Assembly: GCA_964016885.1 (NCBI GenBank)
Contig: OZ024741.1
Coordinates: 335,420,001 to 335,484,000 of the forward strand
Direction: 5' to 3'
DNA from: Eledone cirrhosa
Lineage: Eukaryota
Length of the DNA: 64,000 nucleotides
The position numbers and the translations under genes were made by a program. The first letter of the stretch is position 1, and each line of letters begins with the position of its first letter. Shown here one piece after another: positions 12,009 to 40,231 of this stretch. The notes under the pieces are model-generated. The model had not been told where the DNA came from. It did no database searches and saw only the letters and a program-made list of their open reading frames with translations.

Positions 12009-12066
12009 TCTCCTCCTGCTTGAGGTCTTACTCCAGCCACAAACCTCATCCGTCGCCTCTAGTAAG

Positions 12067-12956
12067 TTATTTTTTTAGGAACTCCCAGTTCTCTTCTACG
12101 TTAAATGTCTCTATCTGTTCTTCTTTACTGTCGTAGGCGTTGAGTAAAATATCTTTAAATCTGTTACTGGTTGAGGGGACTTTCAGCTTCCAGATCTTTC
12201 TTCTCCAGGTTGGCCTCTGTTTCAGGGCTCGTCTAGTTCTGACCGTGAGGTCGCTGACAACTAAGCTATGTTGGGATGTACATTCCTCACTAGGGAAGGC
12301 TTTTGTGTTTACGACCGTCCATCTGTCACGTCCTCTGATGAGGATAAAATCTAACTGACTAGAGTGCTCCCCTGATCTATAGGTGATCAGGTGGTTGTCG
12401 GGTTTTTTAAAGTTTGTGTTACATATCGACATGTCATTGGCGTCGCAGAATTCTAGAAGTCTGAATCCTTCCTCATTCCTTGTGCCAACTCCATGGCCTC
12501 CATGTACTCTATTGAAGCCGTCGCAGTGTTTACCTACGTGTCCGTTAAAATCTCCTGCAATGATTAGGAAGTCCTTGTCGTCTGTTAGAGCAGTAGTGTG
12601 TATTAGGGACTCGTAAAACCTATCCTTAAGTTCGTCTGGCAGCCCCGATTGGGGTGCGTAAGCTGATATTATTGTGGTAATTGTCTTATTCAGGACTAGT
12701 CTGAGTTTAATGATTCTTGCATTTACCCTGTACACTGAGATTACTTTATCTACCCACTTGTCAGCTAATAGTATACCTACACCACCCATCCCATCGTCAT
12801 TTCCCACCCAGAAAAATTTGTAGCACTGGCTTTTTCCTACAAGGACTCTAGCAGACCCTCCTCTCCATCTAGTCTCTTGCACACAGCATACATCAACTTC
12901 CTTTCGCTCTAGCATTTCTACGATTTCTCCTGCTCTTCCTTTCATTGAGCCTACAT
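12067..12956 (-). CDS. RTE APE-type endonuclease portion
   Basis: CVQETRW, GVGIL, SAYAPQ, AGDFNGHVG, TY, SQLDFIL, QHSLV; the first N of the NVG motif is lost at the truncation. Confidence 0.9.
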
Positions 12957-13770
12957 ATTTTTTCATGACGTTATTATTGTTAATTTTACTGATGTAGTAT
13001 TAACTTATTAACTTGGATATTTAATGTAAATGCTAAAGGGTCATCACCCTATTTCATAAGTTATTTTATAGTATGAACACACCATTCACTATATTAACTT
13101 TATATTCTCGGTGCTTTGTAGAAATCCAAGAGATCTGCTACATATACACAGTGTTTGTTGAGATATTTATTTTAATAATTTAAATATTTATCATATAATA
13201 CATTAAACTTTTCTGACATAAAAAATATCAAAGCACAAAATGCAAACATGATATGATTAGCCATATTACACATAATCAAATAGCAAATTAGACACAATTA
13301 GTGAGATAATTAAGATAGAAACAGGTAAAAGCATGAGGGGGTGGGTAAAAGGTATGTTCAAAGGAAATAGACATTTGTATCTGATTTTAGGGAAAAGGGA
13401 CATAATCACAGTGTATTGCACTTACTAGCTAATTTGTCTTCCCTACAAAGTGCTAGGCATATAATTTTGCTTTTGATCTCAAATTAATATTTATCATTGG
13501 CTATATTAAAATCACAAACACTTATTGCTAATCAATAATAATATGTGTGGGTGTATATATATATATATTACTCTGTGTTCTTTATTCTATGATTGGGCTT
13601 CTTAATCTTCATCTTTGGATTAAGATCTCATATATATGCACACACATACATATATATATATATATGCATGTGTATATATATATATATATATATACACACA
13701 TAGATATATATATTTGTATGTACACGCTCACACACACACACACACACATATACATATGTATATATATATG

Positions 13771-19169: not shown

Positions 19170-21945
19170 TGAAAAGGAATGGTAATGGTATGGTAATGGT
19201 AATGGTATGATAATGGTATGACAATGGTATGGTAATGGTATGGCAAGGGTATGGGAATGGTATTGTAATGGTAATGGTATGATAATGGTATCGCAATGGT
19301 ATGGTAATGGTATGGCAAGGGTATGGTAATGGTATGGGAATGGTATGGCGATGTTATGGGATGGTATGGTGATGGTATGGTGATGGTACAGTAGTGGTAT
19401 GGTAATAGTATGGAAATGTATGGTAATGGTATGGTAATGGTATGGGAATGGTATGGTAATGGTATGACAAGGTTATTGGAATGGTATGGCGATGGTATGG
19501 AAATGGTATGGGAATGGTATGAGAATGGTCTGGTAATGATATGGTAATGGTATGATAATGGTATTGTAATAGTATGGTAACGGGATGGCAATGTTATGGG
19601 AATGGTATGGTGATGGTATGGTAATGGTACGGTAATGCTATGGTAATAGTATGGTAATGGTATGGTAATGGTACGGTAATGGTATGGTAATAGTATGGTA
19701 ATGGTATGGTAATGGTATGGCAACGGTATGGTAATGGTATGGTAATAGTATGGTAATGTTATGGGAATGGTATGGTGATGGTATGGTAATGGTATGGCAA
19801 TGTTATGGGAATGGTATGGTAATGGTTTGGAAATGGTATGGTAATGGTATGGCAATGGTATGGGAATGGTATGGCAAGGGTATGGTAATGGTATGGGAAT
19901 GGTATGGCGATGTTATGGGATGGTATGGTGATGGTATGGTGATGGTACGGTAGTGGTATGGTAATAGTATGGTAAATGTATGGTAATGGTATGGTAATGG
20001 TATGACAAGGTTATTGGAATGGTATGGCGATGGTATGGAAATGGTATGGGAATGGTATGAGAATGGTCTGGTAATGGTATGGTAATGGTATGATAATGGT
20101 ATTGTAATAGTATGGTAACGGGATGGCAATGTTATGGGAATGGTATGGTGATGGTATGGTAATGGTACGGTAATGCTATGGTAATAGTATGGTAATGGTA
20201 TGGTAATGGTACGGTAATGGTATGGCAATGGTATGGTAATGGTATGGTAATAGTATGGTAATGTTATGGGAATGGTATGGTGATGGTATGGTAATGGTAT
20301 GGCAATGGTATGGTAATGGTATGGCAATGTTATGGGAATGGTATGGTAATGGTTTGGAAATGGTATGGTAATGGTATGGCAATGGTATGGGAATGGTACC
20401 GGAATGGTACCGGAATGGTATGGTGAAGGCAGGAGAATGGTATGGCAATATTATGGGAATGGTATCAGAATGGTATAGTAATGGCATGAGAAATGTATGG
20501 TAATGGTATGGTAATGGTATGGTAATGGTATGGTAATGGTATGGTGATGGTTTTGGAATGGTATGATAATGGAATGGGAATAGTATGGGAATGGTATGCT
20601 AATGATACGGTAATAGTATGGTAATAGTATGGTAATGGTATGGTAATGGTATGGTAATGGTAGCGTAATGTTATGGGAATGGTATGGCAATGATATAGTA
20701 ATGCTATGGTAATGGGATGGAAATGTTATGGGAATGGTTTGGGAATGGTATGGTGATGGCATGGTGATGGTTTGGAAATGGAATGGGAATGGTATAGTAA
20801 TGGGATAGCAATGTTATGGGAAAGGTATGGTGATGGTATGGTAATGGTATGGGAATTGTATGGTAATGTTATGGGAATGTTATAGGAATGGTATGGTGAT
20901 GGTATGGTAATGGTACTGTAGTGGTATCGTAATAGTATGGTAAATGTATGGTAATGGTATGGGAATGATATGGTAATGGTATGGCAATGTTATGGTAATG
21001 GTATGATAATGGTATGGTAATTGTATGGGAATGGTATGATAATGGTATTGTAATGGTATGGTAATGGGATGGCAATGTTATGGGAATGGTATGGTGATGG
21101 TATGATAATGGTATGGTAATGGTATGCTAATAGTATGGTATTGGTACAGGAATTGTATGGTAATGGTATGGCAATGGTATGGTGATGGTATGGTGATGGT
21201 TTTGGAATGGTATCATAATGAAATGGGAATGGTATGGGAATGGTATGCTAATGATATGGTATGGTATGGTAATAGTATGGTAATGGTATGGTAATGGTAC
21301 GGGAATGGTATAGTAATGGTAGCGTAATGGTAGCGTAAGGTTATGGGAATGGGATGGAAATGTTATGTGAATGGTTTGGGAATGGTATGGTGATGGCATG
21401 GTGATGGTTTGGGAATGGAATAGGAGTGGTATAGTAATGGATAGCAATGTTATGGGAATGGTATGGTCATGGTATAGTAATGGTACAGTAATAGTATGGT
21501 AATAGTATAGTAATGGTATGGTAATGGGATAGCAAAGTTATGGGAATGGTATGGTGAATGGTATGGTACTGGTATGAGATTTGTATGGTAATGGTCTGGT
21601 AATGGTCTGAGAAGGGTATGGCAAAGGTATGGTAATTGTATGGGAAAGGTATGATAATGGTATATTAATGGTATGGTAATGGGATGGCAATGTTATGGGA
21701 ATGGTATAGTGATGGTATGGTAATGGTATGATAATGGTACGAGAATGGTATGGCAACAGTATGGTAATGTTATGGGAATGGTATGGTGATGGTATGGTAA
21801 TATCATGGTAATTGTATGGGAATGGTATGGCAATGGTATGGTAATGGGATAGCAATGTTTTGGCAATGGTATGGAAATGGTATGGTAATGATTTGATAAT
21901 GGTATTGATATGCTAATGTTATGGGAATGGTATAGGAATGTTATG
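19170..21945. repeat. Satellite of degenerate AATGGTATGGT (ATGGT-based) units, ~2.8 kb
   Basis: Continuous 5/6-mer ATGGT/AATGGT variants; + strand is strongly C-poor; internal ~540-560 bp duplication. Confidence 0.95.
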
Positions 21946-22101
21946 TAAACAGTATGGGAACTGTATAGGATTATATATATTAGCTGAGTTAATATTGGAG
22001 CATGTCTAGTGATGTTGTAGTTTGTGGAGTGTAACCATTTTGATGCCAAACATTGCCTGAATCCACCACTGCTTCTATGATACATAACTGTTTACCTTAA
22101 C

Positions 22102-22321
22102 CCTTTAGTATTTACATTACTCTATATTTACTATTGTATTTTCATGGTAAAAGCTTTACCTCACATAATTATCTCACATAATATAGAATCTATGAGACTT
22201 TGATATTATTCATTTTGAGAACAATACCTTAACATCAGTATGAGTGGCCAGTTACAGCAAGTTTGAACAGAAAGCTGTGAGAGAATTCTGGCCAGATATG
22301 GCCAGTTTAAATGCTAAAGGG
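22102..22321. mobile_element. piggyBac-like MITE (TTAA|CCC...GGG|TTAA)
   Basis: TTAA-CCCTTTAGTATTTA ... TAAATGCTAAAGGG-TTAA; reverse-orientation relative at 9430-9633. Confidence 0.75.
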
Positions 22322-22335
22322 TTAAAGTATTTATC

Positions 22336-22367
<32 letters not shown>

Positions 22368-23552
22368 CGTTGTCATGATTGTTATCATCATCATCATCAT
22401 CATTGTCATCATCATTGTCATCATCATTGTCATCATCATCATCATCATCATCACCATTACCATCATCATCATTATCATCATTGTTTAACATCCTTGTTCT
22501 TTGCTATGACACAACTAAAGGATCCTTTCAACCCTTTAATGTTTTCAGGTTTTCTACAGCTGGATGCCCTTCCTATCACCAACCCCTTCACAGAGTGTAG
22601 TGGATGTATTTATAACGTAATTCACCAACACTAGAAAGGCTGTTGTACCCTTGACACAACTACAAGTCTTCATGACGTTTTTGGCCTGGTTTCTACAGTG
22701 AGGTGCCCTTCCTATTGCTAACTACCTTACTAGGTGTACTGAGTGCATTTATCATGGCACTATCACTAGAGATGAGTTTGTTGTCAGTGACTTAACTGAA
22801 GAGCCCTCTCTATCCTAAAGATGGGGCTCGGGTGTTGCCAAGTGATGAGGAATTTAACAGTGTTAGGGATAGTGGATGGTAAGGGGATATCCAGCAGTTT
22901 GGGGTTACTGTGATGATGACAGCTACTAAGGAGCTTCAACTGGTGTCGAATGTAAGTGTTTACATTTACGAGGGGTGGAAATATCCCTAGATGGAGTGTG
23001 GACAGTGATGAGGGTATACAGGGATACTGAGAGTAGCTACTACAGGTGTGTGATGGGGTGCAGTAATAGTGATGATACCTAGTAAGGGATGATAGTGGGG
23101 AAGGAGGGGATAGATCTGGTCAGATTTTAAGATTTGTTCACATTTATCTAAAACCTTTCCATTATAATTTTATGTAAAACCTTTTGTTAAGTCATGTTCC
23201 AAATACCAGTTTAACAATATGGATACCAAACTGTCTGATACAAAATTGTTTATCTTGAAGTGTATATATTTATCTAAAACCCTTCCATCATAATTTTATG
23301 TAAGATTTGCTAAGCTATATTTCAAACACCAGCTTGGCTCTTAATGTCTTGAACAGTATGAAACTGCATTAGCAATACTTTCTTGGAGAGTACACAACAA
23401 CACTGTGCCTACATCATATAAAAAATTAAAATTTTCACAATTTGTCTGTTAGTGAAGAAACTATAAATATTTGAACAAGTCTGTTTTTAAATGTTTCCTT
23501 CTAAATCATTCCAGGATGTAATGGCTTTAATATTGAAAAATTTAGTTATATT

Positions 23553-23741
23553 GGTGGATTGGCAGTATCGGTAGAGCATCAGACACCATGCTTTGCAGCA
23601 TAGAGTTATGGCTCTTTACATTCTGAGTTCAAATCCCGCCAAGGTTAACTTTGCCTTTTATCCTTACAGGGTCGATAAAATAAAGCACCAGTAATACATT
23701 CGGATAATTGTTGGTCTTGTGCCAAAAGTAGAAACAATTAT
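23553..23741 (+). mobile_element. SINE family 1, inside AT-rich MITE remnants (23130-24012)
   Basis: Full A-box, B-box, core and tail as at 49739. Confidence 0.85.
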
Positions 23742-24607
23742 TGATTATTTTTTGGAATATTTGAAAATAATAGGCAGTATATTTCATTAGAAATATGGTA
23801 AAGAAAGGGTTAAAATATTTATATTTATCTAAACATCTTTCATCTTAATTTTATGCAAGAACCTTGAAGTTATACTCTAGACACCAACTTAATAATGAGA
23901 AAGTTAGTTATATTACTAAATCCCTCCAAATGTTTCATTATTTTCAAAAATATTTGAAAAATCCTAGGCAGTATGTTTCACAAAAAAAGTAATATGATAA
24001 CGAAAGGGTTTTAAACTGCCTTATCTCCAATTATTTAGATAAACATGAGCATGGTAAATAATGTACAGAACAAATATTAGAAAGTTTATCTGGAATTTCC
24101 ATTGCTTTACAAAGAACTCACAGTAAATACGAGGAATATTACATCAAAGAAATTGAATTATAATTCCATTGGACAGATTAATAAAAGCCAAGCAATATAT
24201 ACTGAGAGAGAGAGAGAGGGAGGGAGGGAGAGACAGAGAGAGTCACATACATGTTTATACTCATAGCATATTTGATTTCTACTGTACTATAATAGTGGTG
24301 GTGGTGGTGATAATGGCAGTCAGATAATTGGCAATGTACATATTTGTAGGCTGCATGTCTATGATATATATGAAGGTGCATGGCTTAATGGTTAGAGTGC
24401 TGGGCTTACAATCGTTATGTTGTGAGTTCAATTTCCAGACCGGGACAACATCAGTGGCGTAGAGAAGGGAGACTGGTATGTATGGGTGACTGCGGATCTT
24501 CCACAAACAACCTTGCCTGGACTTGTGCCTCGGAGGGCAACTTTCTGGGTGCAAATCCCATGGTTACTCATGACCGATGGGGTTCTTTACTCTTTACCCT
24601 ATATATA

Positions 24608-25365
24608 TCAGCATCATCATCGTTTAATGTCCATGTTTCACACTGGCATGGGTTAGACAAGTTATCTTGTGAGTAATGCCAGGTCAGGTGACCATGTCTT
24701 GCTCATAGTTTCTACAACTGGATGCCTTTCCTAACACCAACCTCATTTCCAATGTGCTAGGTGCTTAGTGCTATGATGCCTACATGACCACTTTATAGTG
24801 TGGACTGGGTACTTATTGCCGTGACACCTACACAACCAGTTTGCAGTGTGGACTGGGTATGTTTTGCCGTGACACCTACACGACCACTCTACAGTGTGGG
24901 CTGGGCACTTTTTGCCGTGTCACCATCATCACCCCTTTACAGTGTGGGCTAGGCACTTTTTGCCGTGTTGCCATCATGACCACTCTACAGTGTAGGCTAG
25001 AGGCTTCACTGGATGTATGCTTCATGGGAAATATATAGGAGTGGGTGGGGTGGTGCTATATATATGCTTCAGTCTCGGCTTGTGCTCATGGGAAGTCTGA
25101 TCTTCTGTAATGCTGTGTAACACCAGAGATCTCAGTCCTGTGTCATCGCCTTTGAGAGGTGCAACTGGGCAAAGTCAGCTTTTATCACCTCGTAACAAGT
25201 CTTCCTGGATCTCCTCACTCCTTGGCTTCCATCAACTTTGAGAGCTCTGCACCTTTTTATACAGCTGCATCCTTCATATGCATCACATGTCCATACCATC
25301 ACAATCTCCTCTCCTGCACACTGTATCTGATTCCTCTTTGGCCTAGTTTTTCTCTCAGTACATTT
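24608..25365 (-). mobile_element. RTE 3' fragment with five ~48-bp tandem units in the 3' UTR
   Basis: 25080-25365 matches the RTE C-terminus (WYGHV..MKD..CIK.CRAL); ACCTACACGACCACTCTACAGTGTGGGCTGGGCACTTTTTGCCGTG-like units at 24778-24998; (CAT)n tail. Confidence 0.85.
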
Positions 25366-25654
25366 ATATATATATATTGAGAGAGAGAGGAGATGAATAG
25401 ATAGATAGATAGATATGTTTCTTTATTAGCCACAGGGGCACAAAAGAAGGGGACAAATACAAAGGGGAAAGTTTACATACAATAAAAACGTGTAAAATGT
25501 TATCACAAATGCAATTTAAAAAGTTAGTCGATTTTCCCCAATAAGGGGAGACAGTTTATATGGGTAACACATACCCCCGAAAAAATGTGCAACCCTCATC
25601 TCCAGGAGTACAAAGAGTTTGTACTCCTTCCCTCTCCTCCTCCTTTTCCTCAAC

Positions 25655-28600
25655 CTACAGGCTGATATAGAGAGAAGGCCCATTCACTCGGGCCATTCTC
25701 GCCACTTTCACCCACCTTTCATAAAACTTGCTGGGGTACAGCACCTCTCTCTCCATCCTGATTCTTCTTCCAAAGTGGTATTTGAAAAAAAGAATCAGTT
25801 GTTGGCCGGAGAGAAAGGTGTCTGAACTCAGCCCTTTCAACCTTGTCCACCATACAACCTCTTTCGCCATAGCTATCACACAAAGGAAAACCACCTCTCC
25901 TTCTTTTTTGAAGGAGGGTGGCGGTTTGATCATGACAATGGACTCGGTGGTCAACTGGATTGGTCCCACCCGCGACAATAGTCGTTCTACATAGCCCCAC
26001 AGGTCAGTGACGCCCGGGCAGTGTATGAATGCATGCGCGATGGTTTCTTTGTCTCGCACGCACCTCGGACAGATCTTTTTTGCAGGGTCCCTGCCCGGGC
26101 GCCCATGTCTGTAGAGCTTGTCTCGAACTGGTAGAGCTCCTCAGTACCACTGCCAGGCCAGGGACTTTTGAAAGTTGTCCATCGGTCCCGGGCGGAAAGT
26201 CCTACCGAACAGACTGGCCAGTTCATTTTCCTCTACGCCTAGAGTTTCACCGAGCGCATCGTCGCACTTGCTGCGGATCAACCCTCTATAGAATGACGAA
26301 GTGGAGTCTCCACTGATCGCCGGGTCCGCCTGCCAGAGGGCTGTGAGCGCCTGAGCACATTCGATGTGCCAGTCGCCCATTTTCCTCAGTCTTTGCTTGA
26401 CCCAGGACTGCAGCTCGGTCAGCGAGACGAGTCGTGGGAAGGCTCGCCTCATGAACGGGGCCCACACCGGTTGTCCGGTGAGGAATATGTAGAGATGCCG
26501 CAGCCTGAACGTGTGTTTGTGCATCGTCAAACACGGCATCCCCAGCCCTCCGTTAGAAGGGTGTTGGCAGCAGATGGATCTTCTCACCAAAGGAGCCTGC
26601 CTCTTCCAAAGGAATTGGAAGAGCGCGCGCTCCATTTTGGCGAGCGTTTTGGCTGGACAAGGCACGACGGTCAAGCGGTAGTAGATGGTGGACGCTATAC
26701 AAGTGTTCGCCACCTCCGCTCGACCTTTCAAGGATAGTTTGCACTCGGCCCACTTCTGGGTGAGTGCAAACACCTTGGCCGTCACTTTGTTCCAGTTCTT
26801 CTCCACCTGGAAGTCCGGACCAAACCAGACCCCGAGCAGCTTTACCGGTCCTTCCGTCCAGCGTCCGACGACGCCATCGGAAGGCATCGGTTTGCCTCTC
26901 CACGATCCGAGTTGCAAACCGATGGACTTGTCCCGGTTCAGCTTCGCTCCTGTGAAACTTTCGTATTCCTTCAGGAAGGTGCCGACTTCCTCGATTTGCG
27001 AGGCGCTCGACATCATTAATGCTACGTCGTCGGCGTAGGCCGACGCCGCTTTCCGCAGTCCCGGTTCCAGAGGGAAGCCCTGCAATAACTCCAACTTCCA
27101 CAGTAGTGGCTCAAGAGTCAGTACGTACAGAAGGGAGGAGAGAGGGCATCCCTGTCGAATGGATCGCGTAATATGGAACGGCTCCGAGAGATAGCCGTTC
27201 ACCTTGACCCTTGAGCAGATGTTGCTGTTGTGCATTGCAGCAATCCAGCCCCTGAACACGGGTCCGAAGCCTGCCGCCTCGAGCACCGCATCCAGGTAAC
27301 GATGGTCAACCCTATCGAAAGCCTTAGACTGATCCAAGTTGATCAGGGCCCCACCGAAGCCGGGTTTACACCCTACCCTCTCTATGATGTATCGCATGAG
27401 GTGGAGGTTGTCGTGTATGGACCTGGTCGGGATTGCGCATGTCTGCGCTTCTCCCACCAGGTTCTCGACGACAAGCGCCAGCCTCTTTGCCAACACCTTG
27501 GCCAAAATCTGTAACTCTGTGTTTAGCAGAGTTATGGGCCGGAAGTTGCCTATGTCATCCCCCTTATTCTCGTCCTTCCTGATTAGTGTGACTACACCCC
27601 CAGTTACAGAACTGGGAATTCTCCCGTTCTGTTGCCAGTTGCAGTAGACCGCTTCCAGGAGACCGGAGAATAAGTCCGGCATTGCTACGTAAAATTCGTA
27701 GGGTAGACCGTCAAGACCTGGAGACTTGCGTTTGCCGCATTGGCTCAGCGCATCCCCTATCTCAGCGGCTGAAATTGGCTTTTCGTAGAACTTTGCCTCG
27801 CTGTCCGAGAGTCGCGGTAGGCCATCGAGGTATGGACCGAAATCCATAGCCCCTCCCGCCCCCCCCCCCCCCCGAACGGTCGAGCAAAGTGCCGCTGAAA
27901 GGCCGCACACATCTGCTTCGGCTCACGTATCACGTTTTGGTCCTTCAAAGACCGAATCGTGGACTTGTTGCCACTTTTTGCCTCCATCACTCGGGCCCAG
28001 CTAGCAGCTTTGGCTCCCTCGTTTCCCAGAGCACGTATTTTGCTTCTGACAACGCAGCCCTCGTGCTTTGCGTCGAAGAACTGGTCCAAGGCCGTTCTCG
28101 TTGCTAGCACGCTGGCTACGTTGCCACTTCTAATTGCCTCTTCTACTTTATCTACCAGTTCATTCTCGGTTCTATTTCTATCTAACGCTAATTCTTTACT
28201 AAAAACTAACGAGCCTAATCTAACTGCCCTCTTAAGAGAGTACCACCATCTGTTGTTGACAATGGTCCCTGTCAAGTGCTGTTTAACTGAAGTGCTAATC
28301 CGTCTACTGTAGGCTTTGCTTGTCGGTAACGACAAGTTCAGCTTCCAGTAGCCGGGTCCTTGTCTATGGGTTCTATCAAGGTTGGCCATGCAGGTCACTA
28401 GTTTGTGATCTGAATAGGCAACCATGAACATTTGTGGACAGCTAAACATTTCCCTATCCTTATTTCTAACTAGAACCCTATCTAGGTACGATCTAGATGT
28501 TCCGCTACGATTAGTCCACGTCCACAGTGGCGCAGTCGGAAAATCTAGTCGATATCTATCGGCCAGGTCAAATCGGTCGATTAACTGTTTGAGGCTGTTA

Positions 28601-29055
28601 CACCCCCCCCCCCTTTATTGGGACATGCTCCCACATAGTCCCAACGTGCATCTAGGATTCCATTCCAGTCCCCCACTAAAAGCAAGGAGCGGGACGTTCC
28701 CAGAAAAGTCTCTAGACGTTTGAAGAATTCTGGCCGCGGTGTCCCGGATGGGGCATATGCGGCCACCAGCCTGAAGGCTCCACCTTCACTACCGTCAACG
28801 TCTAGGACCAACAGTCGACCCTCTACGTCGAGATGTACCGTCTGTGTTACGAGGCCCAGGTGTTTCCGCAGCAAAACAGCAACTCCGCCCCCACCCCTCG
28901 GTTGACAGAGAGATGCGTCGCTCCCTGTGGATCCTGGACTCGCAAATGGCTACCACATCCATACTGTGCGACCTGAGGTCGTTTAAGAGTTTGCCCTGTT
29001 TCCAGGGCATCCCCGGGCCGCGTACGTTCACACATCCAACTCTTATATTGGCCAT
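25655..29055 (-). pseudogene. Element A ORF2 (APE-RT-CCHC), disrupted
   Basis: Pieces GCVNVRG, GDWNG, YSDH, KSPGLDG, NFRPITLLN, DQSKAFDRV, RQGCPLS, AYADD, ETIAHAFIHC; colinear with 32380-35817; several frameshifts, some at G homopolymers. Confidence 0.92.
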
Positions 29056-29092
29056 GTTGGTGCTGAAAAGTTAAAAGAGGAAAAGAGATCAC

Positions 29093-31051
29093 TCACCCTT
29101 CGTCTCCTGGGGACCAGGCCACACGATTTCCATGGGGGGTGTTGGAGGGGTTGTCTGGATGGGTGGTGGTTTCCGGCGGGGTGGGGACGCAGATGTTTGG
29201 TGGGGTGGGGTCTGGTGGGATGGGGGTGTCTGGGGTGGGGAGGCATTTGAGAAGGACGCGGTTGAGTGGTTTCACGCAGGAATTACCCACATCCTTCTCA
29301 AATGTTTCTTTTAGGGACCTATAAGTTTGTATAGGGACCCTAATCAGTTTTAGGTTCAGTTTGTTGCTATTTTTAATAGAGTGGGCGAAAGTTTTCCCTT
29401 CGGTGAAAACCGAAGGGTCGTTCGTGATGGTCTCCATTAGTGTTTTGTTTTCAGTGTTTATGTAAGTGTAAGTGTAATTTTCTTGTGTTGTGTTTGTTTT
29501 TGTCTGTAGTTCTTGTGTGTGCTTTCGTTTTGTTGTAGGTATTTTGTTTTCAGGAGGTGGGGGTTTTGTTTGTGATGTTTTTGTTGTTTGTGTTGGTGGT
29601 TGTATGTTTGTGGTAGTGTTTGCTGGTTTTTTGCTTTTGTGATGTCTTTTCTTTCTTTTCGAGGGAGAACCCCATCGCTCGAGCGATGGGGTTCTCCCTC
29701 GTCTTCACTGGGTGATGGCGAGATAGCCTCATCTGTTGTATCGTCTGTGTGATTGGGGAGGGGTATGTCTTGGGGAGCTGTTGTGTCTGTATGTGATTTT
29801 GCAGTCGTTTTAGGTGGAGTGGGGTTGGGTGGGACTGTGTTTGTTGTGGTTATTTTTGTGTGTTGGTGTTGTTGTTGTTGTGGTGGTGTTGGTGGTTGTG
29901 TTGTTTTGATGGGTGTCGGCAGAAGAGCCTTTTTTTGGTTCATTAGTTTAGGACAGGAAGCCCTCAGGTGACCCCTGCTAAAGCAATGGTAACATGAAGG
30001 CCGCCTACCCTCAACCGAAAGGTTTATGTAGGTGAGTCCGTCCAGGAGTACACGCTGTGGGATCATAGCTATTCGCTCTGGGCTCATTTGCACCAGAACT
30101 TCAATGCTAGTCCCATTGAATACATCTCTGGGGGACTTTCCTACTGACAGTATTGTGTCTTGATCAAAATTGATGAAGCCGCACAGTATCCTCCATATGT
30201 TCACCTTTGGTGTGACCTTCGTGATTTGGATCTTTTGTGTCCTTTTCCCCATGTATGTAGGGAAAAAGGTGTACAGGTTGGATACAATTGGCGACACAGA
30301 GTAATTTTGGGCCGTCAATTGATCCTTCATGAGTACCGAAATACTCCCAAAAAGTTTGCTTCTTTGAATGAATGCAATATCATTCATTGAATTTTTGAAA
30401 ACCAGTTCAATTTCTTTCTGTGACAATTGGACTGGTTTTCGGGTAGAATTGGAAACTGTCCTAAAAACTATCGTTTTGAGAGCAGTTTCCTTGAGAATTT
30501 CTACCGGAGAATTGATGCTGAAAGCACCATTTTTTTCGAAAGTGACATATCTCCTAGCGTCCTTTAAAAGTTGTTCGGCATTTGTTATGTCGATATATAT
30601 CAGTTCCTCCTTTTTTTGAACTGTCTGTGCAAAGGAGATTTTGGTTTCTTTGTGGAATTATCCGTGTTGGTGGTGTTGTCATTATTGTTGTTATTGTTGT
30701 TGTTATTCTTGTTGTCACTGATGTTGATATTATTCGTATTTTCCTAGGTGTTGGTGTTGGTGTTGTTGTTGTCTTTGATGCTGGTGTTATTGGTGTTGTC
30801 TTTATTTTTTCTTTGTTATTGTTATCATTGTTGTTTTTATCATCATTATTGGTGTTGCTGTTATTTTTGTTGTCATTGAACTGTTTGGTGTCATTTGTGT
30901 TGTTTGGATATGAATTTGTTTTTACATTTTCATTTCGTCTTTCCATCTCTATAGTATCTATTGAGAAGGAAAGGGAAGAAGACGATGTTGACTGCGAGCT
31001 CTGTAGTCTTACCGACTCTCCACCACCATTATCGTTGAACGCAGCGTTCAT
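29093..31051 (-). pseudogene. Element A ORF1 (gag-like, CCHC zinc knuckle), frameshifted
   Basis: CYHCFSRGHLRASC (C-x2-C-x4-H-x4-C) at about 29952-29993; low-complexity N/T/P linkers; C-terminal block shared with element D. Confidence 0.8.
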
Positions 31052-31280
31052 AACGTAATCAAATTCTTTATTTCCAAAATTCGATGGAGAAAAAATTTTC
31101 AAACGAATATTTCGCCCCTGTAGGGGCGAAAATGAGTTGACCCACCATCTGAAGGTCCAGACGGGGGGGGGGGGGGTCAAGTTACTCAATAATATAAAAT
31201 TTAACTGAAAACTCACGTTTTTTCTTACATAAAATAACGGAAACTTCTCCGCGAAGTTACACACGTCTGATAGATAGATA

Positions 31281-31654
31281 TATTTCTTTATTAGCCACAG
31301 GGGCACAAAAGAAGGGGACAAATACAAAGGGGGAAGTTTACATACAATAAAAACGTGTAAAATGTTATCACAGATGGAATTTAAAAGTTAGTCGATTTTC
31401 CCCAATAGAGGGAGACAGTTTATATGGGTAACACAGACCCCCGAAAAAAATGTGCAACCCTCATCTCCAGGAGTACGAAGAGCTTGTACTCCTTTCCTCT
31501 CCTCCTCCTTTTCCTCAACCTACAGGCTGATATAGAGAGAAGGCCCATTCACTCGGGCCATTCTCGCCACTTTCACCCACCTTTCATAAAACTTGCTGGG
31601 GTACAGCACCTCTCTCTCCATCCTGATTCTTCTTCCAAAGTGGTATTTGAAAAA

Positions 31655-31657
<3 letters not shown>
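31281..31657 (-). mobile_element. Tx1-like element B, 3' stub nearly identical to A
   Basis: Matches 25416-25792 with few differences; bounded by (GATA)n on both sides. Confidence 0.92.
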
Positions 31658-31716
<59 letters not shown>

Positions 31717-32092
31717 CTCTTTATTAGCCACAAGGGCGCAACAAGAAAGGGGACAATACAAAGACATGCCGGGGATTTTACATACAGTCGTGTAAAAAAT
31801 ATAAAAACAAACAATTTCAACAATCGAAATCCCCAATAGGGGGGAGGCGCCACAAATGGGTTGTTTAATACCCCCGTCGATAGAACAACCCTCAACTCAA
31901 GGAGCGTGTTGTGTAAGTGCTCCTTTCTTCCTTTTGCTCTCTTCCTCAACCTACAGGCTTATAAACAGAGAAGGCCCAATCACTCGGGCCATTTTCGCTT
32001 CATTCACCCACCTTTCAGTAAATTTACTGGGTGCAGTGCCTCTCTCTCCACCCTGATTCTCCTTCTAAAGTGATACTTAAAGAATGGAATCA
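31717..32092 (-). mobile_element. Tx1-like element C, 3' stub of a diverged family
   Basis: Encodes the ORF2 end (RWVNEAKMARVIGPSLFISL*) plus a diverged 3' UTR; bounded by (GATA)n. Confidence 0.9.
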
Positions 32093-32115
32093 ATAGATAG
32101 ATAGATAGATAGATA

Positions 32116-35100
32116 AGTTTCTTTTATTTGCCACTAGGGCATCAAAAGTGGGACAAGTACAAAGGGGGGAGTTTACACAAAAAGGCGTCCTCAATAAGGA
32201 GGAGGCAATAACAAAATATAAAAATAAAATAAGATATAACAAAAAATAAAATTTTTAACAAAATCCTCAATAGAGAGGAGGCGCCTTGGGGGGTCGCACA
32301 CACCCCCGAAAAAAGTGTGCAACCCTTTTCCTCAGGAGCACAGAGAGGGGGTGCTCCCTCGTTCCTTCCTCTTTTCCACCTACAGGCTTATGTAAAGAGA
32401 AGGCCCATTCACACGGGCCATTCTCGCCACTTTCACCCACCTTTCATAAAAACGACTGGGGTGCAGCACCTCTCTCTCCATCCTGATCCTTCTTCCGAAA
32501 TGATATCGGAAGAAACGGACCAGTTGTTGGCCAGAGAGAAAGGTGCCTGACCTCAGTCCTTTCAGACGCGTCCACCATACAACCTCTTTCGCCATGGCTA
32601 TTACGCACAGAAACACCGCCTCTGCTTCATCTTTGAAGGGGGGAGGCGGCTTGATCATTACAATAGACTCGGTGGTCAACCGGATCGGTCCCACCCTTGA
32701 CAGCAGTTGTTCGACATAGCCCCACAGATCGGCTACGCCCGAGCAGTGTACCAATGCGTGTGCAACGGTTTCCTCGTCGCACACGCATCTGGGACAGATC
32801 TTTTTGGCGGGGTCCCTACCCGGGCGCCCGTGTCTGTAGAGCCTTTCTCGAACGGGTAAAGCCCCTCGGTAGCACTGCCAGGCCAGGGACTTCTGGAAGT
32901 TGTCCATAGGTCCCGGGCTGAATGTCCTACCGAACAGGCTGGCCAGTTCGTCCTCCTCCATGTCTAGGGCTTCTCCGAGGGCGTCGTCGCACCTGCTGCG
33001 TACCAGCCCTCTATAGAATGTTGCGGTGGAGTCTCCACTGATAACCGGATCCGCCTGCCAGAGGGCGGTGAGCGCCTGGGCACACTCAGTGTGCCAGGCG
33101 CCCAGTTTTCTCGGTCTTTGCTTGACCCAGGATTGCAGCTCGGTGAGTGAGACGAGTCTGGGAAAGGTTCGTCTCACAAACGAGGCCCACACCGGTTGTC
33201 CGGTGAGGAATACGTAGAGGTGCCGTAGCCTTAATGCGTGTTTACGCATCATTAGCCACGGCATCCCCAGCCCTCCTTTCGAAGGGTGTTGACAGCAGAT
33301 GGATCTCCTCACCATAGGAGCCCGCCTCTTCCAAAGGAATTGGAAGAGCGCGCGCTCCATCTTGGTGAGGGTTTCCCTTGGGCAGGGCACTACGGTCAGG
33401 CGGTAGTAGATGACGGACGCTATATAAGTGTTCGCCACCTCCGCCCGACCTTTCAGGGATAGTTTGCAACTGGCCCACTTCTGGGTCAGTGCAAACACCC
33501 TGTTCGTAACCTCCGCCCAGTTTTTCTCCACCTGGAGGTCCGGTCCGAACCAGACCCCGAGCAACTTCACCGGGCCCTCCGTCCAGCGTCCGACGACGCC
33601 ATCAGAGGGCATCGGTCTGCCCCTCCACGTGCCGAGTTGCAAACCGATCGACTTGTCCCGGTTCAGCTTAGCCCCTGTGAACTTTTCGTACTCCTCCAGT
33701 AAGGTGCCGACCGCCTCGATTTCGGAGGCCGTCGACACCATTACTGTCACATCATCGGCGTAGGCTGACACCGCTTTCCGCAATCCCGGTTCCAAAGGGA
33801 TGCCCTGCAACAACTCCAACTTCCGCAGTAGTGGCTCGAGAGTCAACACATACAGAAGGGAGGAGAGAGGGCACCCTTGTCGGATGGACCGCGCGATTTT
33901 GAACGGCTCCGAGAGGTAGCCGTTCACCTTGACCCTAGAGCAGATGCGGCTGCTGTGCATAGCAGTGATCCAGCCCCTGAAAACGGGTCCGAAGCCTGCC
34001 GCCGCTAGCACCGCATCCAGGTAACCATGGTCGACCCTATCGAACGCCTTAGATTGATCCAAGTTGATCAGAGCCCCACCAAAGCCGGGTTCGTTCCCAA
34101 CCCTCTCTATGATGTATCGCATGAGGTGGAGGTTGTCATGGATGGACCTGGACGGGATAGCGCATGTCTGCGCATCTCCCACCAGGTTGCCCACGACAAG
34201 CGCCAACCTCTTTGCTAGCACCTTGGCCAAAATCTGTAACTCTGTATTTAGCAGAGTTATGGGCCTGAAGTTACTTATTTCGTCCCCCTTGTTCTCGTCC
34301 TTCCTCACTAGCGTGACTACGCCCTTGGTCACAGTACAGGGAATTCTCCCGTTCTGTTGCCAGTTGCAGTAGACCGCCTCGAGGAGATCGGGGAACAAGT
34401 CCGGCATAGCTAGATATAATTCGTAAGGAAGACCATCGAGACCCGGGGATTTGCGTTTGCCGCATTGGCTCAGCACGTCCTCTATCTCAGCGGCCGAAAT
34501 CGGCTCCTCGCAGGACTTCGCCTCCCTGTCCGAGAGGCGCGGCAGGCCGTCGAGGTATGGACCGAAGTCCACGTTCCCAACCGGCTCCCCGCCCCTCCCG
34601 AACAGTCGGGCAAAGTGCCTTTGAAAGGCCTCACACATCTGCTTAGGCTCAAGAATCGCCCGTCCATCCAGGTCTCGCAAAGACCGGATGGTGGATTTAG
34701 TTCCACTGTTGGCCTCTGTCACGCGGGCCCAGCTAACAGCTTTGGCCCCCTCGTTCCCTAGAGCACGTATTTTACTTCGGACAACGCAGCCTTCGTGCTT
34801 CGCGTCGAAAAACTGGCTCAAAGCCGTTCTCGACGCTAGCACTCTGGCCACGTCGCCGCTTCTAATTGCCTCTTCTACTCTATCTATTAGCTCCCTTTCC
34901 TTCCTATTCCTATCCGCAGCTAGAACCTTACTAAATTCAATCGAGACTACTCTAATCTCTCTCTTTAGAGATACCCACCACCTGCTGTTGACGATCGCTC
35001 CAGTCAACCGTTCCTTAACTAACGTACTAATCCGATTCCTGTAGGCTCTACTTGCCGGCAAGGACAAGTTGAGCTTCCAGTAACCGGGGCCCTGTCTATG

Positions 35101-36159
35101 AGTTCTGTCAAGGTTGACCATGCAGGTCACTAATTTGTGGTCTGAATAGCCAACCATGCGCATTTTTGGACAACTTAAATAGTCCTTATCCTTAATTCTA
35201 ACTAAGAACCTATCTAGGTACGACCTAGATGATCCGCTACGATTTGCCCAAGTCCAGGTTGGCGCAGTCGGAAAATCTAGTCGATATCTATCGGCCAGGT
35301 CAAATCGACCGATTAACCCTTTGAGGCTATTACACCCCTCTCTATCGGGGCAGGCCCCTACGTAGTCCCAGCGTGCATCTAGGATACCATTCCAGTCCCC
35401 CACTAATAGCAAGGAGCGGGACGTCCCTAGAAAAGTCTCCAGACGATGGAAGAAGTCCGGCCGCATTGACCCGAAAGGGCCGTAGGCGGCTACCAACCTA
35501 AACGCTCCACCTTTACCACTGCCAAGGTCCAGAACCACTAGTCGACCCTCCGGGTCCAAATGTACCATCTGTGTTGCGAGACCCAGATGTTTTTGCAGCA
35601 GAACGACAACTCCACCCCCACCTCCGGGCTGACAGAGAGATGCGTGCATCTCAAAGTCATCAAAGGTGGGGGCCAGCTGTCGCACGTTGCTGATCCGGGC
35701 CTCGCAAATAACCATCACATCTATACGTTGTGACCTGAGGTCATTTAGAAGCATTGCTTGCTTCCAAGTTGAGCCCAGGCCACGCGCATTTAAGCAGCCT
35801 ACTCTTAGCATAGCCATGTTGGTGGTGAAGAGAAAAGGCACTTACCTCTCTGCGTCCCGGGTATCGGGCTGCACAATTTCCATTAGGGTGGGGGATGGGT
35901 TGTTGGGTGGGGTGGTGGTTTGTGGAAGTGTGGGGGCATCAGTGTGTTGTGTGGTTGGGGAGCTTGGAGTTGTGAGGGTGTTTGGGGAGGGGGTGGGATA
36001 GTTTTTTAGGAGGACGCGGTTAATGGGCCCGACGCAGGGGGGACCCACGTCCTCTTTAAAATTGTTTTTTAAAGTTTTATAGGTGTCCTGTGGGGCCTTA
36101 ATCATTTTGAGGTGGGGGAAATCCCCTGCCTGGGTGAAGTTAGGCCCTTGTGTTTTTAT
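32116..36159 (-). mobile_element. Tx1-like element D, truncated within ORF1, ORF2 intact
   Basis: Bounded by (GATA)n at 32093-32115 and 36160-36190. Confidence 0.93.
32380..35817 (-). CDS. Intact ORF2p: APE endonuclease, reverse transcriptase, CCHC zinc finger (1145 aa from ATG 35817)
   Basis: CLNARG, ICEAR, GDWN, SYLDRF, YSDH; PGYWKLN; KSPGLDG, NFRPITLLN, DQSKAFDRVDH, RQGCPLS, YADD, LLGV, GGLG; CPRC-x8-H-x4-C; no stops. Confidence 0.95.
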   Translation of the reverse strand: MAMLRVGCLNARGLGSTWKQAMLLNDLRSQRIDVMVICEARISNVRQLAPTFDDFEMHASLCQPGGGGGVVVLLQKHLGLATQMVHLDPEGRLVVLDLGSGKGGAFRLVAAYGPFGSMRPDFFHRLETFLGTSRSLLLVGDWNGILDARWDYVGACPDREGCNSLKGLIGRFDLADRYRLDFPTAPTWTWANRSGSSRSYLDRFLVRIKDKDYLSCPKMRMVGYSDHKLVTCMVNLDRTHRQGPGYWKLNLSLPASRAYRNRISTLVKERLTGAIVNSRWWVSLKREIRVVSIEFSKVLAADRNRKERELIDRVEEAIRSGDVARVLASRTALSQFFDAKHEGCVVRSKIRALGNEGAKAVSWARVTEANSGTKSTIRSLRDLDGRAILEPKQMCEAFQRHFARLFGRGGEPVGNVDFGPYLDGLPRLSDREAKSCEEPISAAEIEDVLSQCGKRKSPGLDGLPYELYLAMPDLFPDLLEAVYCNWQQNGRIPCTVTKGVVTLVRKDENKGDEISNFRPITLLNTELQILAKVLAKRLALVVGNLVGDAQTCAIPSRSIHDNLHLMRYIIERVGNEPGFGGALINLDQSKAFDRVDHGYLDAVLAAAGFGPVFRGWITAMHSSRICSRVKVNGYLSEPFKIARSIRQGCPLSSLLYVLTLEPLLRKLELLQGIPLEPGLRKAVSAYADDVTVMVSTASEIEAVGTLLEEYEKFTGAKLNRDKSIGLQLGTWRGRPMPSDGVVGRWTEGPVKLLGVWFGPDLQVEKNWAEVTNRVFALTQKWASCKLSLKGRAEVANTYIASVIYYRLTVVPCPRETLTKMERALFQFLWKRRAPMVRRSICCQHPSKGGLGMPWLMMRKHALRLRHLYVFLTGQPVWASFVRRTFPRLVSLTELQSWVKQRPRKLGAWHTECAQALTALWQADPVISGDSTATFYRGLVRSRCDDALGEALDMEEDELASLFGRTFSPGPMDNFQKSLAWQCYRGALPVRERLYRHGRPGRDPAKKICPRCVCDEETVAHALVHCSGVADLWGYVEQLLSRVGPIRLTTESIVMIKPPPPFKDEAEAVFLCVIAMAKEVVWWTRLKGLRSGTFLSGQQLVRFFRYHFGRRIRMEREVLHPSRFYERWVKVARMARVNGPSLYISL

Positions 36160-36190
<31 letters not shown>

Positions 36191-36534
36191 GTAGAAAGTG
36201 AGATAGAAGGATAGAGAGAGAAAAAAAGAAAAAGAGAGAGGAAATGAGTGTGCAAAACAATATAGAACAATATAGAACCTGTGATTGGCTGGATAGAGTA
36301 AGGCACGCTTATGATACTGCCAAGTTCTTCCAGCTGTACTGCATTAATGTTATTGTTGTTGTTGCCGTGGTCGTTATTGTTGTCGTTATGGTTGCTGTTG
36401 TTGTTGCTACAGTTGTTGTCATCATTGTTATTGCTGTTGTCATTGTTATCAATCCTGTTGTTATTGGTGGTGTTGTTGTTTTTGTCATTGTTATTAATAT
36501 TGTTGGAGTTGTTATTGTTATTTAGCTCTAACCT

Positions 36535-36940
36535 TCTTCTTCTTCTTCTTCTTCTTCTTCTTCTTCTTCTTCTTCTTCTTCCACCCACATATTTCTGGAA
36601 GGGTCATGGGAGGCAGAGTCCTCAAACACTCCTTTTAGAAGGTCTTGTCAGAAGCAACTGTCTCCAATTGATCTGGCTGGATCCCCAGAATTCTTTCCTG
36701 AGACATTCTAACCAAATGCCTGTAATACTGGAGCTGAGATCTCTCATTTTAGAGAAGTAGTGGCTTTAATTTAAACAACATTGATCTTCAAGCTGCATAC
36801 TCTATCAAGTAACATTAGTCCAAAGACCCTTCGGAGGAACCCCATTTCAACCACAATCGTATTCTTTCAGTTATTACCCAACATACATGACCATAGATAT
36901 GTGTTGGCATGAGCACCAAATTGAAGATAACGAGTTGACT
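36535..36940 (-). mobile_element. RTE/Expander-like 3' fragment with (GAA)n tail
   Basis: Reverse complement resembles 18170-18626; (TTC)n at 36535-36581. Confidence 0.75.
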
Positions 36941-37399
36941 TTTACACCTACCTCCTCATAATTCTATGTAAGCTCATTTATGAAGCTAAGTTCCAAACAC
37001 AAATTAAATAATGAGAATGTTAGTTATTAAATACCACTGATTCTTGATTATTTTCATAGACAGTGTCTTTCCTGAGAAATATGGTAATGGAAGTGTCAAT
37101 CCCGAAGGCAAATGAAACAACACCGCCTCTTCCCCAATGCTGAACCCATATCTTCCAGTAAGATTGTAAATGGTATACACCACTCAAGTATCATAACATT
37201 CACTTTAATTAAAAGCCAGCAGCTTGTCTGACTTTTCTGTTCGACAAATATGATATAGGCTTTCTGCTAGTTAAAGTAAACCACTACAGCCATGTTTTTA
37301 TTGCTGTTGGTTTCTGACTCTATCTGTGATACATTTGTTAATTAACAATTTGTCTATTCCACCAAATACTGCTTGGTAGATACCTATCTGACTCCCCTT

Positions 37400-38600
37400 G
37401 TGTGTCACATGTCATTTTGATCAACATCTTTCTGCCTATCAGTTGCTAATATTTCATCAGAAATATTGCTTCAGGTTCTTATATAAGTGATTAACTTGTA
37501 ATTCTCTTTGGCACGCAAGTTTTCCAACATAGGTAGAAGAAAAGACAGTTGAAGCCAAGGCTTTCTAATTTAAAATGGCATGGAGATTAAGAACCCATAC
37601 TTGCATTACATGACTCATTACTTTCCAAAGAGAGCAGAAGTTCTTCCGCCAATTCTTATGAATACTATCAATACTCAGTACAAATCAATTTCCCATTCTT
37701 TTTTTCTAAGAATCTCTTGAATGTCTTTCACACTTATGATAAAGTCTTTTGCACTTTTCACCTCCCCTCACAATTTCTCAGCTATTCTTTCTATCCATTG
37801 TTATGCTGGTTTTTGTACTTTTTCCTTCTGATATTCTAACTTAGAACTCTAACTAATCTTTACTTAGTCTCAAACCACTTATCCGATTTGCAACCCACAT
37901 CCTATCTTTCACACAACATTAACTTTCAGCAAGCAATAGTGGTATTCTTTACTTTTCTACCTTTATATCTTTCTGTCTCTCATAGCATTTTACTAAGTCT
38001 TATTTCATGTAACAACTTGTAAATCATTAACTCTTAATACTTTACAATCTGTAATTATCTTTCAAAAATATTCTTTTTTTTTAGCTTGATCCTGTCTTCT
38101 ATTCCTACATTCATAGATCAAGCTATGAATGTGGGAAAAGAAAACTGGATGCTATGAACTTATCAAAACTATATATTAGGCTTTTAGAGTGGTTTATACC
38201 CTCTATCATCTGCATTTTTTTCTCAAGTAACCATGTTCAACTTTCTCAGCGAACTTGTCTATTTTTCATTTTGCTCAATTATTGAGTAGAGTCTTCCAGT
38301 GTTCCAATGAGAAGGATTTATGTCAGCTTATATTTTATATCCCTCTCTAAACCAGTTTTTCCTATCCTCAATAAACTTAGGCAAAATGGTTACTGACTTT
38401 TTCATCTGTTGAAGATGTTTCTTCAGTGATACTATTTGGGTCTTGTGTGATGTTAATATGGATTTTAAGCTCCAACAACACTTCTTACACAGGAAATATA
38501 GCTTATCCATGTCACCATTCATGTTACAGTTTCCAGTAACACTGAGCAGCTTGTGAGTCCTTATATCCATCTCATTCAGTTCTTACAATACCAAATGCTG
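37400..38600 (-). pseudogene. Possible decayed LINE ORF1 (PHD-like plus coiled-coil)
   Basis: Remnant ..HKL..LYFLCKKC followed by heptad-like sequence; minus strand is purine-rich; heavily degraded. Confidence 0.3.
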
Positions 38601-39282
38601 GAGTTAGGATGGACATAGCAAAAGTATTATGGACAATATGCTTGTTGTACACAGTGAATTCTGATGATTATATTCTCTTTATACTCCTGAGATATTTATT
38701 CCTAGTCTTCTCCTTATTTGTGGTGCCATCATATCTGACATGCTCATCCTGTCCAAGACATGTGGTTGTCACCTGACAGTAGATGCTCAATTGTCAAGCC
38801 ATTTATTTTCTGTGTGTGTGTGTGTATATGTCTGTTCATGTGTTTCTCTGTGTATATATGTATGCATATACATGAATATATATATATTTATGTACATATT
38901 ATGTATCTATATTTGTGTTTGTTTGTATGTGTATTTTATACATAAATATATATATATATATATATATATACATAAGTATTTCTGTGTGTATTATGTACAT
39001 ACATAAATATGCATGTATTTAACTAAGTATGTGTGTATGTATGCATGGATGTATGTATGTATATGTGTATGTTTGTTTATATGTGTGTATATATGTATTT
39101 ATATGTATGTATGTTATATGGCTAGTGTGGCAATATAATCCCTTGACCACAAAGCAAGATGACACTGTCATATTTATCAAATTTTAAATGAATATATATC
39201 ACTGGGTATATACATGTATGTATGTGTCTATGTATGTGTGTATGCAAATATGTATGTGTGTGTGTATAGATGTATGAATGTA

Positions 39283-39329
<47 letters not shown>

Positions 39330-40231
39330 GTATGTGTGAGTATAGATGTATGTATGTGCATGTATATATGTATGATTCTATGTATGTGTCTATGTATGTA
39401 TGTATATTTGTGCATATGTATCTAGGTGCAGATTTATGTATGTGTATGTGTTTATATAGATGTGTGTGTGTGCATTGATGTATGTATGTGTGTGTTCCAT
39501 CTTTCACACCAGTGTGATCACACAGCATTTAAAATCTATCAAATTACAAGATACATGTATAAATGCAAGTATATCTCTCAGTGTGTGTATGTGTGTATAT
39601 GTGTGCATGTCTGTGTGTTTGTGTGTGTATGTATGCATGTATGTATGTGTGTGTGTGCATGCAGTATCTATTTGTACAATTATTTATGTATGTATTCACT
39701 TGCCATCCTATTTGTACATAGCATATTGAAATTTAATAAATTACCATAATCATGCATATATTCATTTATATACATACATACTTAGGAAAGTATGTGGCTT
39801 GCTGGTTAGGGTATTTAAATCATTGTAAGAACGGGAGTTCAATTCCCAGATGTGCGTTATGTCCTTGAGCAAGACATACTTCCCATTGCTGCAGTCTACA
39901 GTGGATTGGTGGTTAGAATATTTAGCTCAGGATTATTTATAAGGACATGAGTTTGATTCCCAGTGGTATGTTTGTCCTTGAGCAAGATTTATCTCATATT
40001 ATTCCACTCTATTGTGGCTTGGTGGCTAGAGTATTTAACTCAGAAATGTAAAGAGATGAGAAAATATAATCCGCTATGTGAGAGCGAAAAATCAAATTCT
40101 AATTTTGTTTTTAACTTTCAGCAAAATCAACTGTCAAATCGCTCAGTATATAAATGAGGCTAATCAGCCGATGTATACATTAGAAAATATTATATATGTT
40201 CAACAGTTCAAGCAAGTGGCAGAGAAATACA

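Follow-up and report, generated by a model that had tools for sequence, protein, structure and literature searches.

How does a retrotransposon with an unbroken coding frame come to lie inside a short tract of GATA repeats? The question is raised by a 64-kb stretch of the Eledone cirrhosa genome (contig OZ024741.1, positions 335,420,001 to 335,484,000; hereafter the window, numbered from its first letter). Here element D, a copy of a long interspersed element (LINE) of 4046 bp on the minus strand (32116..36161), meets GATA repeats at both ends. A preliminary description had proposed that the protein of its second open reading frame (ORF2p) is an intact, potentially functional and site-specific endonuclease (EN) joined to a reverse transcriptase (RT). 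We consider it probable that D was inserted recently, is 5'-truncated and non-autonomous, and belongs to an L1/Tx1-type LINE family that targets (GATA)n/(TATC)n.

Self-BLAST places D among four same-strand copies, A, B, C and D, which represent at least three subfamilies and alternate with plus-strand GATA runs. Element A (25416..31268, minus strand, 5853 bp) is probably full length, and the (GATA)4 at the outer flank of its 3' end (25400..25415) grades into a GA/AT microsatellite. It is separated by (GATA)3 (31269..31280) from B, a 377-bp 3' fragment of the same subfamily (31281..31657, minus strand) that is identical to A at 365 of 376 positions. Next come (GATA)14 (31658..31713) and C, a 382-bp 3' fragment of a third subfamily (31714..32095, minus strand), which matches the others at 75–78% in the untranslated region (UTR) and at 84–85% in the coding end. 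The 5' end of C is joined by (GATA)5 (32096..32115) to the 3' end of D, which aligns to A at 80% over 4045 columns, and the (GATA)7 at the truncated 5' end of D (36162..36189) grades outward into a degenerate GA-rich microsatellite. All five plus-strand runs of (GATA)3 or longer in the window (4, 3, 14, 5 and 7 units) are element junctions, and tblastn found no further piece of the family elsewhere in the window. At the 3' end of all four copies, AATAAA(A) is followed by four purines, two bases that vary and then (TATC)n. The repeat thus starts 6 nt past AATAAA(A) in a single register in each copy, and poly(A) is absent.

The preliminary description had called the element specific for GATA, and (TATC)n does fit all five junctions at this one locus. 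B is 97% identical to A, but A, C and D are only 75–78% alike among themselves in the 3' UTR, so at least three lineages arrived independently. The outer 5' flank of D is (TATC)7 with no element upstream, and the repeat is therefore a target and not merely a tail. AGAT-class repeats account for 152 of 53,342 host bases; three further random hits in them would have a probability of about 2e-8, or 1e-4 among simple-repeat bases only, both values being optimistic for a locus chosen after the fact. The target duplication is hidden because the insertion lies inside the repeat. Targeting of (GATA)n as such we regard as very probable.

As the preliminary description had recognized, D lacks its 5' UTR and most of ORF1. 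It begins at 36161, inside ORF1, and keeps about the last 106 codons plus TAA (35842..36161, minus strand), a remnant that aligns to a C-terminal ORF1 piece of A and is followed by a 24-nt spacer to the ATG of ORF2. Copy A retains about 1.9 kb of ORF1 and, in addition, a leader. With neither promoter nor ORF1, D is most likely unable to move, to judge from its sequence. Three of the four copies are 5'-truncated, and long terminal repeats (LTRs) were not seen in self-BLAST. ORF1 of A, of an RRM-like plus CCHC type (atlas 0.90–0.92; Pfam zf-CCHC, E 0.13 only), survives in pieces, and its ORF2 is broken by a 35-nt deletion, two frameshifts in homopolymer runs and one TGA.

ORF2 of D, in contrast to that of A, is unbroken. 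It runs on the minus strand from an ATG at 35817 to a TAG at 32382–32380 (32380..35817), with 1145 sense codons and no internal stop, and a chance origin of this EN-RT frame is excluded. The domain order EN-RT-CCHC is borne out by Pfam, AlphaFold and Foldseek. With residues counted from Met, Pfam detects Exo_endo_phos at residues 23–227 (E 5.5e-8), RVT_1 at 512–755 (E 5e-26) and zf-RVT at 976–1032 (E 4e-5, under the curated cut-off). The endonuclease domain, of the apurinic endonuclease (APE) type, covers about residues 1–236 (35110..35817, minus strand) by its AlphaFold model and match to the L1 EN structure 1vyb. The RT core lies at 33553..34284 (minus strand), with YADD (residues 686–689) at 33751–33762, and the C-terminal finger, C1008-x2-C1011-x8-H1020-x4-C1025, at 32743..32796 (minus strand). 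In an alignment with 111 relatives, scored over those covering each column, the endonuclease catalytic residues of D are all present and almost invariant: N10 (97/97), E39 (98/100), Y112 (95/102), D141 (103/103), N143 (102/103), D202 (103/103), and D226 and H227 (102/103). The same holds for the RT residues D587 (104/104) and D688 and D689 (105/106), and C1008, C1011, H1020 and C1025 are nearly invariant. Every feature that had been claimed for the frame, namely uninterrupted codons, APE motifs, YADD and a C-terminal CCHC, was found. With all catalytic residues in place, ORF2p looks catalytically complete, in keeping with the suggestion that it is potentially functional.

We looked for signs of decay at positions where the family is conserved. 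D agrees with 100 of 107 columns that are conserved in at least 85% of the 111 relatives, and departs from the family at seven: Q38C, L254P, A448V, K528Q, G556S, Y621H and R784C. Copy A departs at six of these columns as well, with the same residue at five and Thr at 556, which leaves A448V, a conservative change, as the sole departure private to D. Lys528 of the family aligns with K541 of human L1, a template/primer contact (PMC10830420). Gln at 528 is also present in a copy from Argonauta hians, so K528Q predates D and is a lineage trait rather than decay. Departures at conserved columns found in D only, compared with those in A only, numbered 4 versus 13 of 365 (p 0.049) and 6 versus 16 of 440 (p 0.052), and 21 versus 34 of 688 (p 0.10) when close relatives alone were used. 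Altogether the D protein looks competent, a judgement that we infer from these comparisons. At codon 38 (35704–35706), the Gln that precedes E39 is near-invariant (95/100 relatives) but is Cys in both D and A, and Q38C is a candidate subfamily-specific change at the active site.

The predicted structure of ORF2p is that of an L1-type protein. AlphaFold gave a mean predicted local distance difference test (pLDDT) score of 94.1 for the EN domain and 88.1 for full-length ORF2p. The best Foldseek match of the full-length model is human L1 ORF2p (E 2.9e-53), and the EN model superimposes on human L1 EN (1vyb) with Z 29.0 and a root-mean-square deviation of 2.6 over 228 aligned residues. A comparison with the EN of Xenopus Tx1L, proposed in the preliminary description, could be made in part: the model matches the LTx chimera (2v0r) with Z 28.7, and LTx and LR1 chimeras tie with wild-type L1 EN, but Tx1L EN itself was absent among the PDB matches. 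ORF2p of D is thus predicted to fold like human L1 ORF2p; the model was built from an alignment of relatives and is therefore evidence for the fold, not for activity.

The endonuclease segment to which a role in target choice had been ascribed does lie where expected. Alignment to the hairpin anchors T192 and S202 of L1 EN (PMC1950540) places the β-hairpin loop of D between T189 and S199, with nine residues between them (35221..35253, minus strand), and the surrounding 15-residue segment (188–202) has 13 of its 15 residues in common with that of A, in line with its description as nearly the same in A. This likeness does not exceed the endonuclease background. A and D share 7/9 loop residues, 13/15 in the segment and 76% over the whole EN domain, and of the 179 endonuclease 15-mers 56 are at least as similar as 13/15 (p 0.26). 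In three closer relatives with ungapped segments the loop length is kept, with 4, 7 and 6 of the 9 residues in common with D. We therefore rejected loop likeness as a sign of shared specificity, since it equals the endonuclease background and the loop varies in close relatives. The corresponding loops have 11 residues in Tx1L, with an RDGH tip, 11 in TRAS1 and, as in D, 9 in the promiscuous human L1 (PMC1950540). In a sister group of unnamed full-length ORF2p (P0004–P0019, about 40% identity), 11 of 16 members have 11-residue loops, whereas the D lineage has 9.

The age of D had been judged from its base composition. The richness is real: D has a GC content of 0.553 and an observed/expected (o/e) CpG ratio of 0.84, whereas the remainder of the window has 0.342 and 0.33. 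It is not a sign of age, however, since the broken ORF2 of A, with three frameshifts and a stop, is equally rich (0.537 and 0.83), and A–D transitions are scarcely enriched at CpG sites (47/219) over a GpC control (41/237). Composition was accordingly rejected as a clock; it is a family trait. D looks young because an unbroken frame bounds neutral decay. Between 3.4 and 4.1% of random substitutions in its ORF2 create a stop, and stops alone limit neutral divergence to d < about 2.1–2.6% (95%), or to d < 0.6–1.0% when frameshifts are assumed at 5–10% of substitutions. Under an Octopus vulgaris rate at which a distance of 0.09 corresponds to 25 Myr (PMC13282606), D would be at most ~2–7 Myr old. 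Its sequence thus indicates that D is probably young. The ORF2 regions of A and D are 83.6% identical in nucleotides and 82.6% in amino acids, with a synonymous divergence (dS) of 0.55 and a nonsynonymous to synonymous ratio (dN/dS) of 0.18 over 1126 codons; by this measure A belongs to another subfamily than D, and the window holds no near-identical master of D. Recently active relatives of D, which the preliminary description took its intactness to imply, are plausible.

By its anatomy D belongs to the L1 group (L1 and Tx1) of APE-type non-LTR retrotransposons: it has an N-terminal APE endonuclease, an RT and a C-terminal CCHC, a separate upstream ORF1 (seen in A) and no LTRs. Its RT is nearest to the L1 type, both in a search of PDB sequences (L1 E 1e-47 versus R2 3e-19) and in a profile search (2e-221 versus 3e-72). 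It is likely to be a member of the Tx1 clade on anatomical grounds, namely the animal host, the CCHC in ORF1 and the target preference. A quick tree, with 68 rows and none dropped, puts D and A in a group of 58 rows that is separate from 8 plant L1s (SH-like approximate likelihood ratio test, SH-aLRT, 95). The nearest named relatives are the Argonauta hians proteins Ahia01_000009400 (P0003) and Ahia01_000463900 (P0052), at 63% identity; P0003 groups with D and A in this tree at SH-aLRT 99, and P0052 shares Q528, F115 and the 9-residue loop with D. These relatives, like the AT- and microsatellite-rich window, make an octopod host probable. A further piece of 62% identity (P0054) is labelled as a protein of a Herbaspirillum metagenome-assembled genome but comes from a 1.8-kb contig and is probably mis-binned animal DNA.

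Human L1 ORF2p (9k6i, 9hdr, 8uw3, 1vyb) resembles that of D in its EN-RT-CCHC order, fold, catalytic residues and 9-residue loop, but structural identity is about 17–18% and the lengths are 1275 and 1145 amino acids. The D family also differs from human L1 in lacking poly(A) in all four copies and in its (TATC)n site, as opposed to the T-tract/A junctions of L1. Mammalian L1 ORF1p is not known to have a CCHC knuckle, whereas ORF1 of the D family, judged from copy A, has one. The EN of Xenopus Tx1L is a sequence-specific APE endonuclease of the clade that D most resembles; it differs in its 11-residue loop and in its target, the Tx1D transposon (PMC1950540).

Tx1 elements are described as inserting into microsatellites: Kibi into (TC)n, Koshi into (TTC)n and crocodilian Tx1 into (TTCC)n/(TTTC)n (PMC4494074), and elements of other clades into ACAY, AC and TAA (PMC3812793). 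Like D, Kibi, Koshi and crocodilian Tx1 are APE-endonuclease non-LTR elements in a simple repeat. They differ from it in repeat unit and in host, fish or crocodilian and not cephalopod. The crocodilian (TTTC)n is one base away from the (TATC)n of D, provided that the published unit is given for the strand of the element. Each of the five junctions has (TATC)n as its unit and none has (TC)n, (TTC)n, (TTCC)n or (TTTC)n, and the outer flanks grade into TC-rich repeat. Target-specific families have been defined by one sequence type in more than 20% of flanks (PMC4494074); here the same repeat stands on both ends of 4/4 copies, all at one locus. Neither a (GATA)n-targeting Tx1 nor an octopus case was found among the papers listed in searches of the published literature, to which Repbase, Dfam and subscription papers were external, and the available text of PMC10294476, PMC8967140, PMC8869645 and PMC5753468 gave no GATA target. 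O. vulgaris is credited with 80 L1-Tx1 consensus families, 13 of them recently active with 421 insertions of about 5.4 kb each on average (PMC13282606); that paper and its supplement, as available, give no target site for these families and do not contain the word 'target'. Beside these recent insertions, it is ordinary and to be expected that an octopod genome should hold a LINE with an intact ORF2. The apparent (GATA)n specificity common to three subfamilies is likely, from this one locus, to be a new variant of microsatellite-targeting Tx1-type LINEs.

Several observations weigh against reading D as a young insertion of a GATA-targeting, Tx1-type family. The cluster is one locus only, chosen after the fact, which is why the p values above are optimistic, and the only other run of at least three units in the window, a (TATC)4 at 646–661, is empty. 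The tree holds no named Tx1 or animal L1 references, and D and A stand only weakly (85) beside Xenopus tropicalis and Pundamilia proteins. Cys38 beside the catalytic E39 is found in 0 of 100 covering relatives, although A has it too. At the sequence level, the hairpin loop is evidence neither for nor against GATA recognition. Finally, four protein searches returned no relative at least 80% identical to ORF2p of D, although the sets searched are probably poor in repeat-masked animal ORFs, so that this lack is no evidence of absence. In one search 8000 candidates were scored and 48 matched, the best at 69% identity across 80% of the length, and in another 26 of 8000 matched, the best at 79% across 19%; the others comprised the best 150 of 53,660 representatives of the whole library and the best 120 of 142 matches to a profile, for which 8000 candidates were scored.

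The insertions can be accommodated in target-primed reverse transcription, the steps of which are outlined in PMC10830420. ORF2p would bind its own RNA through the 3' UTR, and its APE endonuclease would nick the GATA strand, the strand that primes cDNA. From the freed 3' OH, cDNA synthesis would then start at the 3' end of the RNA, and a few read-through UAUC units that pair with the GATA primer would probably assist it. Frequent early arrest of synthesis would yield copies such as B, C and D, and target duplication would leave a fresh repeat beside each copy, so that later copies could pile up in tandem. The intact ORF2 of D would reflect a recent copy of a master under purifying selection. 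AATAAA lies six bases from the junction, so transcripts would be expected to end within the repeat. By the junctions, the primer ends with the last A of a GATA unit in copies A, B and D, with an ambiguity of 3 nt in C; since the RNA may itself end in UAUC units, the true nick could be anywhere in the repeat.

The 3' UTR of D (32116..32379, minus strand), delimited by junction and fold analysis, ends with its AATAAA just before the junction and contains candidate conserved stem-loops. Across A, B, C and D both sides are changed in 5 of 27 pairs, a covariation above that of 500/500 shuffles, and the 3' UTR of D alone folds slightly better than shuffled sequence (z −1.85; 8/200). Rfam gave no match in 22000–40000 of the window. 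The stem-loops are a candidate lead for RNA recognition by ORF2p, derived from the same four sequences, three of them independent.

It is possible, though we think it the less probable course, that targeting is real but set mainly by RNA–DNA pairing. A read-through (UAUC)n end would anneal to GATA strands wherever these are nicked or broken, and the endonuclease, L1-like and of loose specificity, would only supply the nicks; the scheme differs from the one above only in the part that chooses the site. The absence of poly(A) and the fixed 6-nt interval between AATAAA(A) and the repeat in 4/4 copies are in its favor, as is a loop of L1 length (nine residues) that varies among close relatives. 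Loop grafts in L1 alter nicking, and specificity is not transplanted with them (PMC1950540). In SART1Bm, priming is more accurate when the RNA end resembles the target, and R1Bm is said to need such an end (PMC7265360). On the other hand, the Tx1L endonuclease in its wild-type form nicks hardly any sequence other than its target (PMC1950540), and reviews name the endonuclease as the main determinant (PMC4494074, PMC3812793). The junction sequences fit both models and so do not separate them, and on the precedent of Tx1L the endonuclease is the default candidate for the site chooser.

CR1 and L2 LINEs make their own repeat tails. An improbable alternative is that there was no true targeting here, (TATC)n being a tail made by the element and the cluster a product of a local hotspot, nesting or partial tandem duplication. 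Every copy does carry the repeat at its 3' end, B is close enough to the 3' end of A to be a local duplicate, and a single locus is seen. Against this, all four 5' junctions abut the repeat, that of D with no element upstream of its (TATC)7, none of the four copies interrupts another, and the divergence of A, C and D calls for three or more independent events in one small tract. That ORF2 of D is instead kept by selection, as a host-transcribed or domesticated ORF2p able to mobilize short interspersed elements (SINEs) or truncated copies in trans, is highly improbable: the truncation spares the whole of ORF2, the spacer and a start codon in strong context, with a purine at −3 and G at +4, and the neighboring copy has decayed where D has not, but youth alone accounts for the intact frame, and the low dN/dS, which comes from a comparison with another subfamily, records the selection that past masters underwent.

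For a young insertion into a targeted repeat, the wider picture would be an octopod-wide L1/Tx1-type lineage that has kept (GATA)n specificity over deep subfamily splits, homes by read-through UAUC ends without poly(A) and has built GATA tracts and tandem arrays genome-wide, with D encoding a working, compact ORF2p (1145 amino acids) whose site could be chosen by its RNA tail; this extension we hold to be unlikely. Were (GATA)n specificity general across the genome, the TC/TTC/TTTC series of microsatellite-targeting Tx1 elements would gain a repeat unit and a group of animals new to it. How such elements find microsatellites is described in a review as poorly understood (PMC3812793), and D offers a natural ORF2p, in no need of repair, for comparing endonuclease recognition with annealing of the RNA tail. 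GATA microsatellite markers in such a host may adjoin mobile insertions.

Some further features of the four copies were seen. The 5' truncations of B (377 nt, end 31657) and C (382 nt, end 32095), which belong to different subfamilies, lie within ~5 nt of each other, about 135–140 nt inside the end of ORF2; the RT may stall at this point, microhomology with the repeat may make it a hotspot, or B and C may represent a short non-autonomous form. Two of the three frameshifts of A are in long C runs (28601–28612 and 27855–27874), where replication slippage or long-read assembly error may be responsible, and a perfect 42-nt palindrome (29660–29701) lies inside ORF1 of A, close to a frame change. 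Between ORF1 and ORF2, D has an in-frame spacer of 24 nt (35818–35844) and A an out-of-frame one of 37 nt (29056–29095), so a read-through fusion is not conserved; that of A resembles a splice acceptor, and that of D is without the AG.

Elsewhere in the window, an unrelated LINE on the minus strand (9936–12999) encodes EN, RT and a PHD finger over two frames; it has no flanking GATA runs, a GC content of 0.457 and a CpG o/e of 0.50. An 11-bp satellite repeated ~249 times (19178–21905) and an (ACC)n array of ~630 units whose higher-order period is 444 bp (58996–60878) give rise to several spurious long ORFs.

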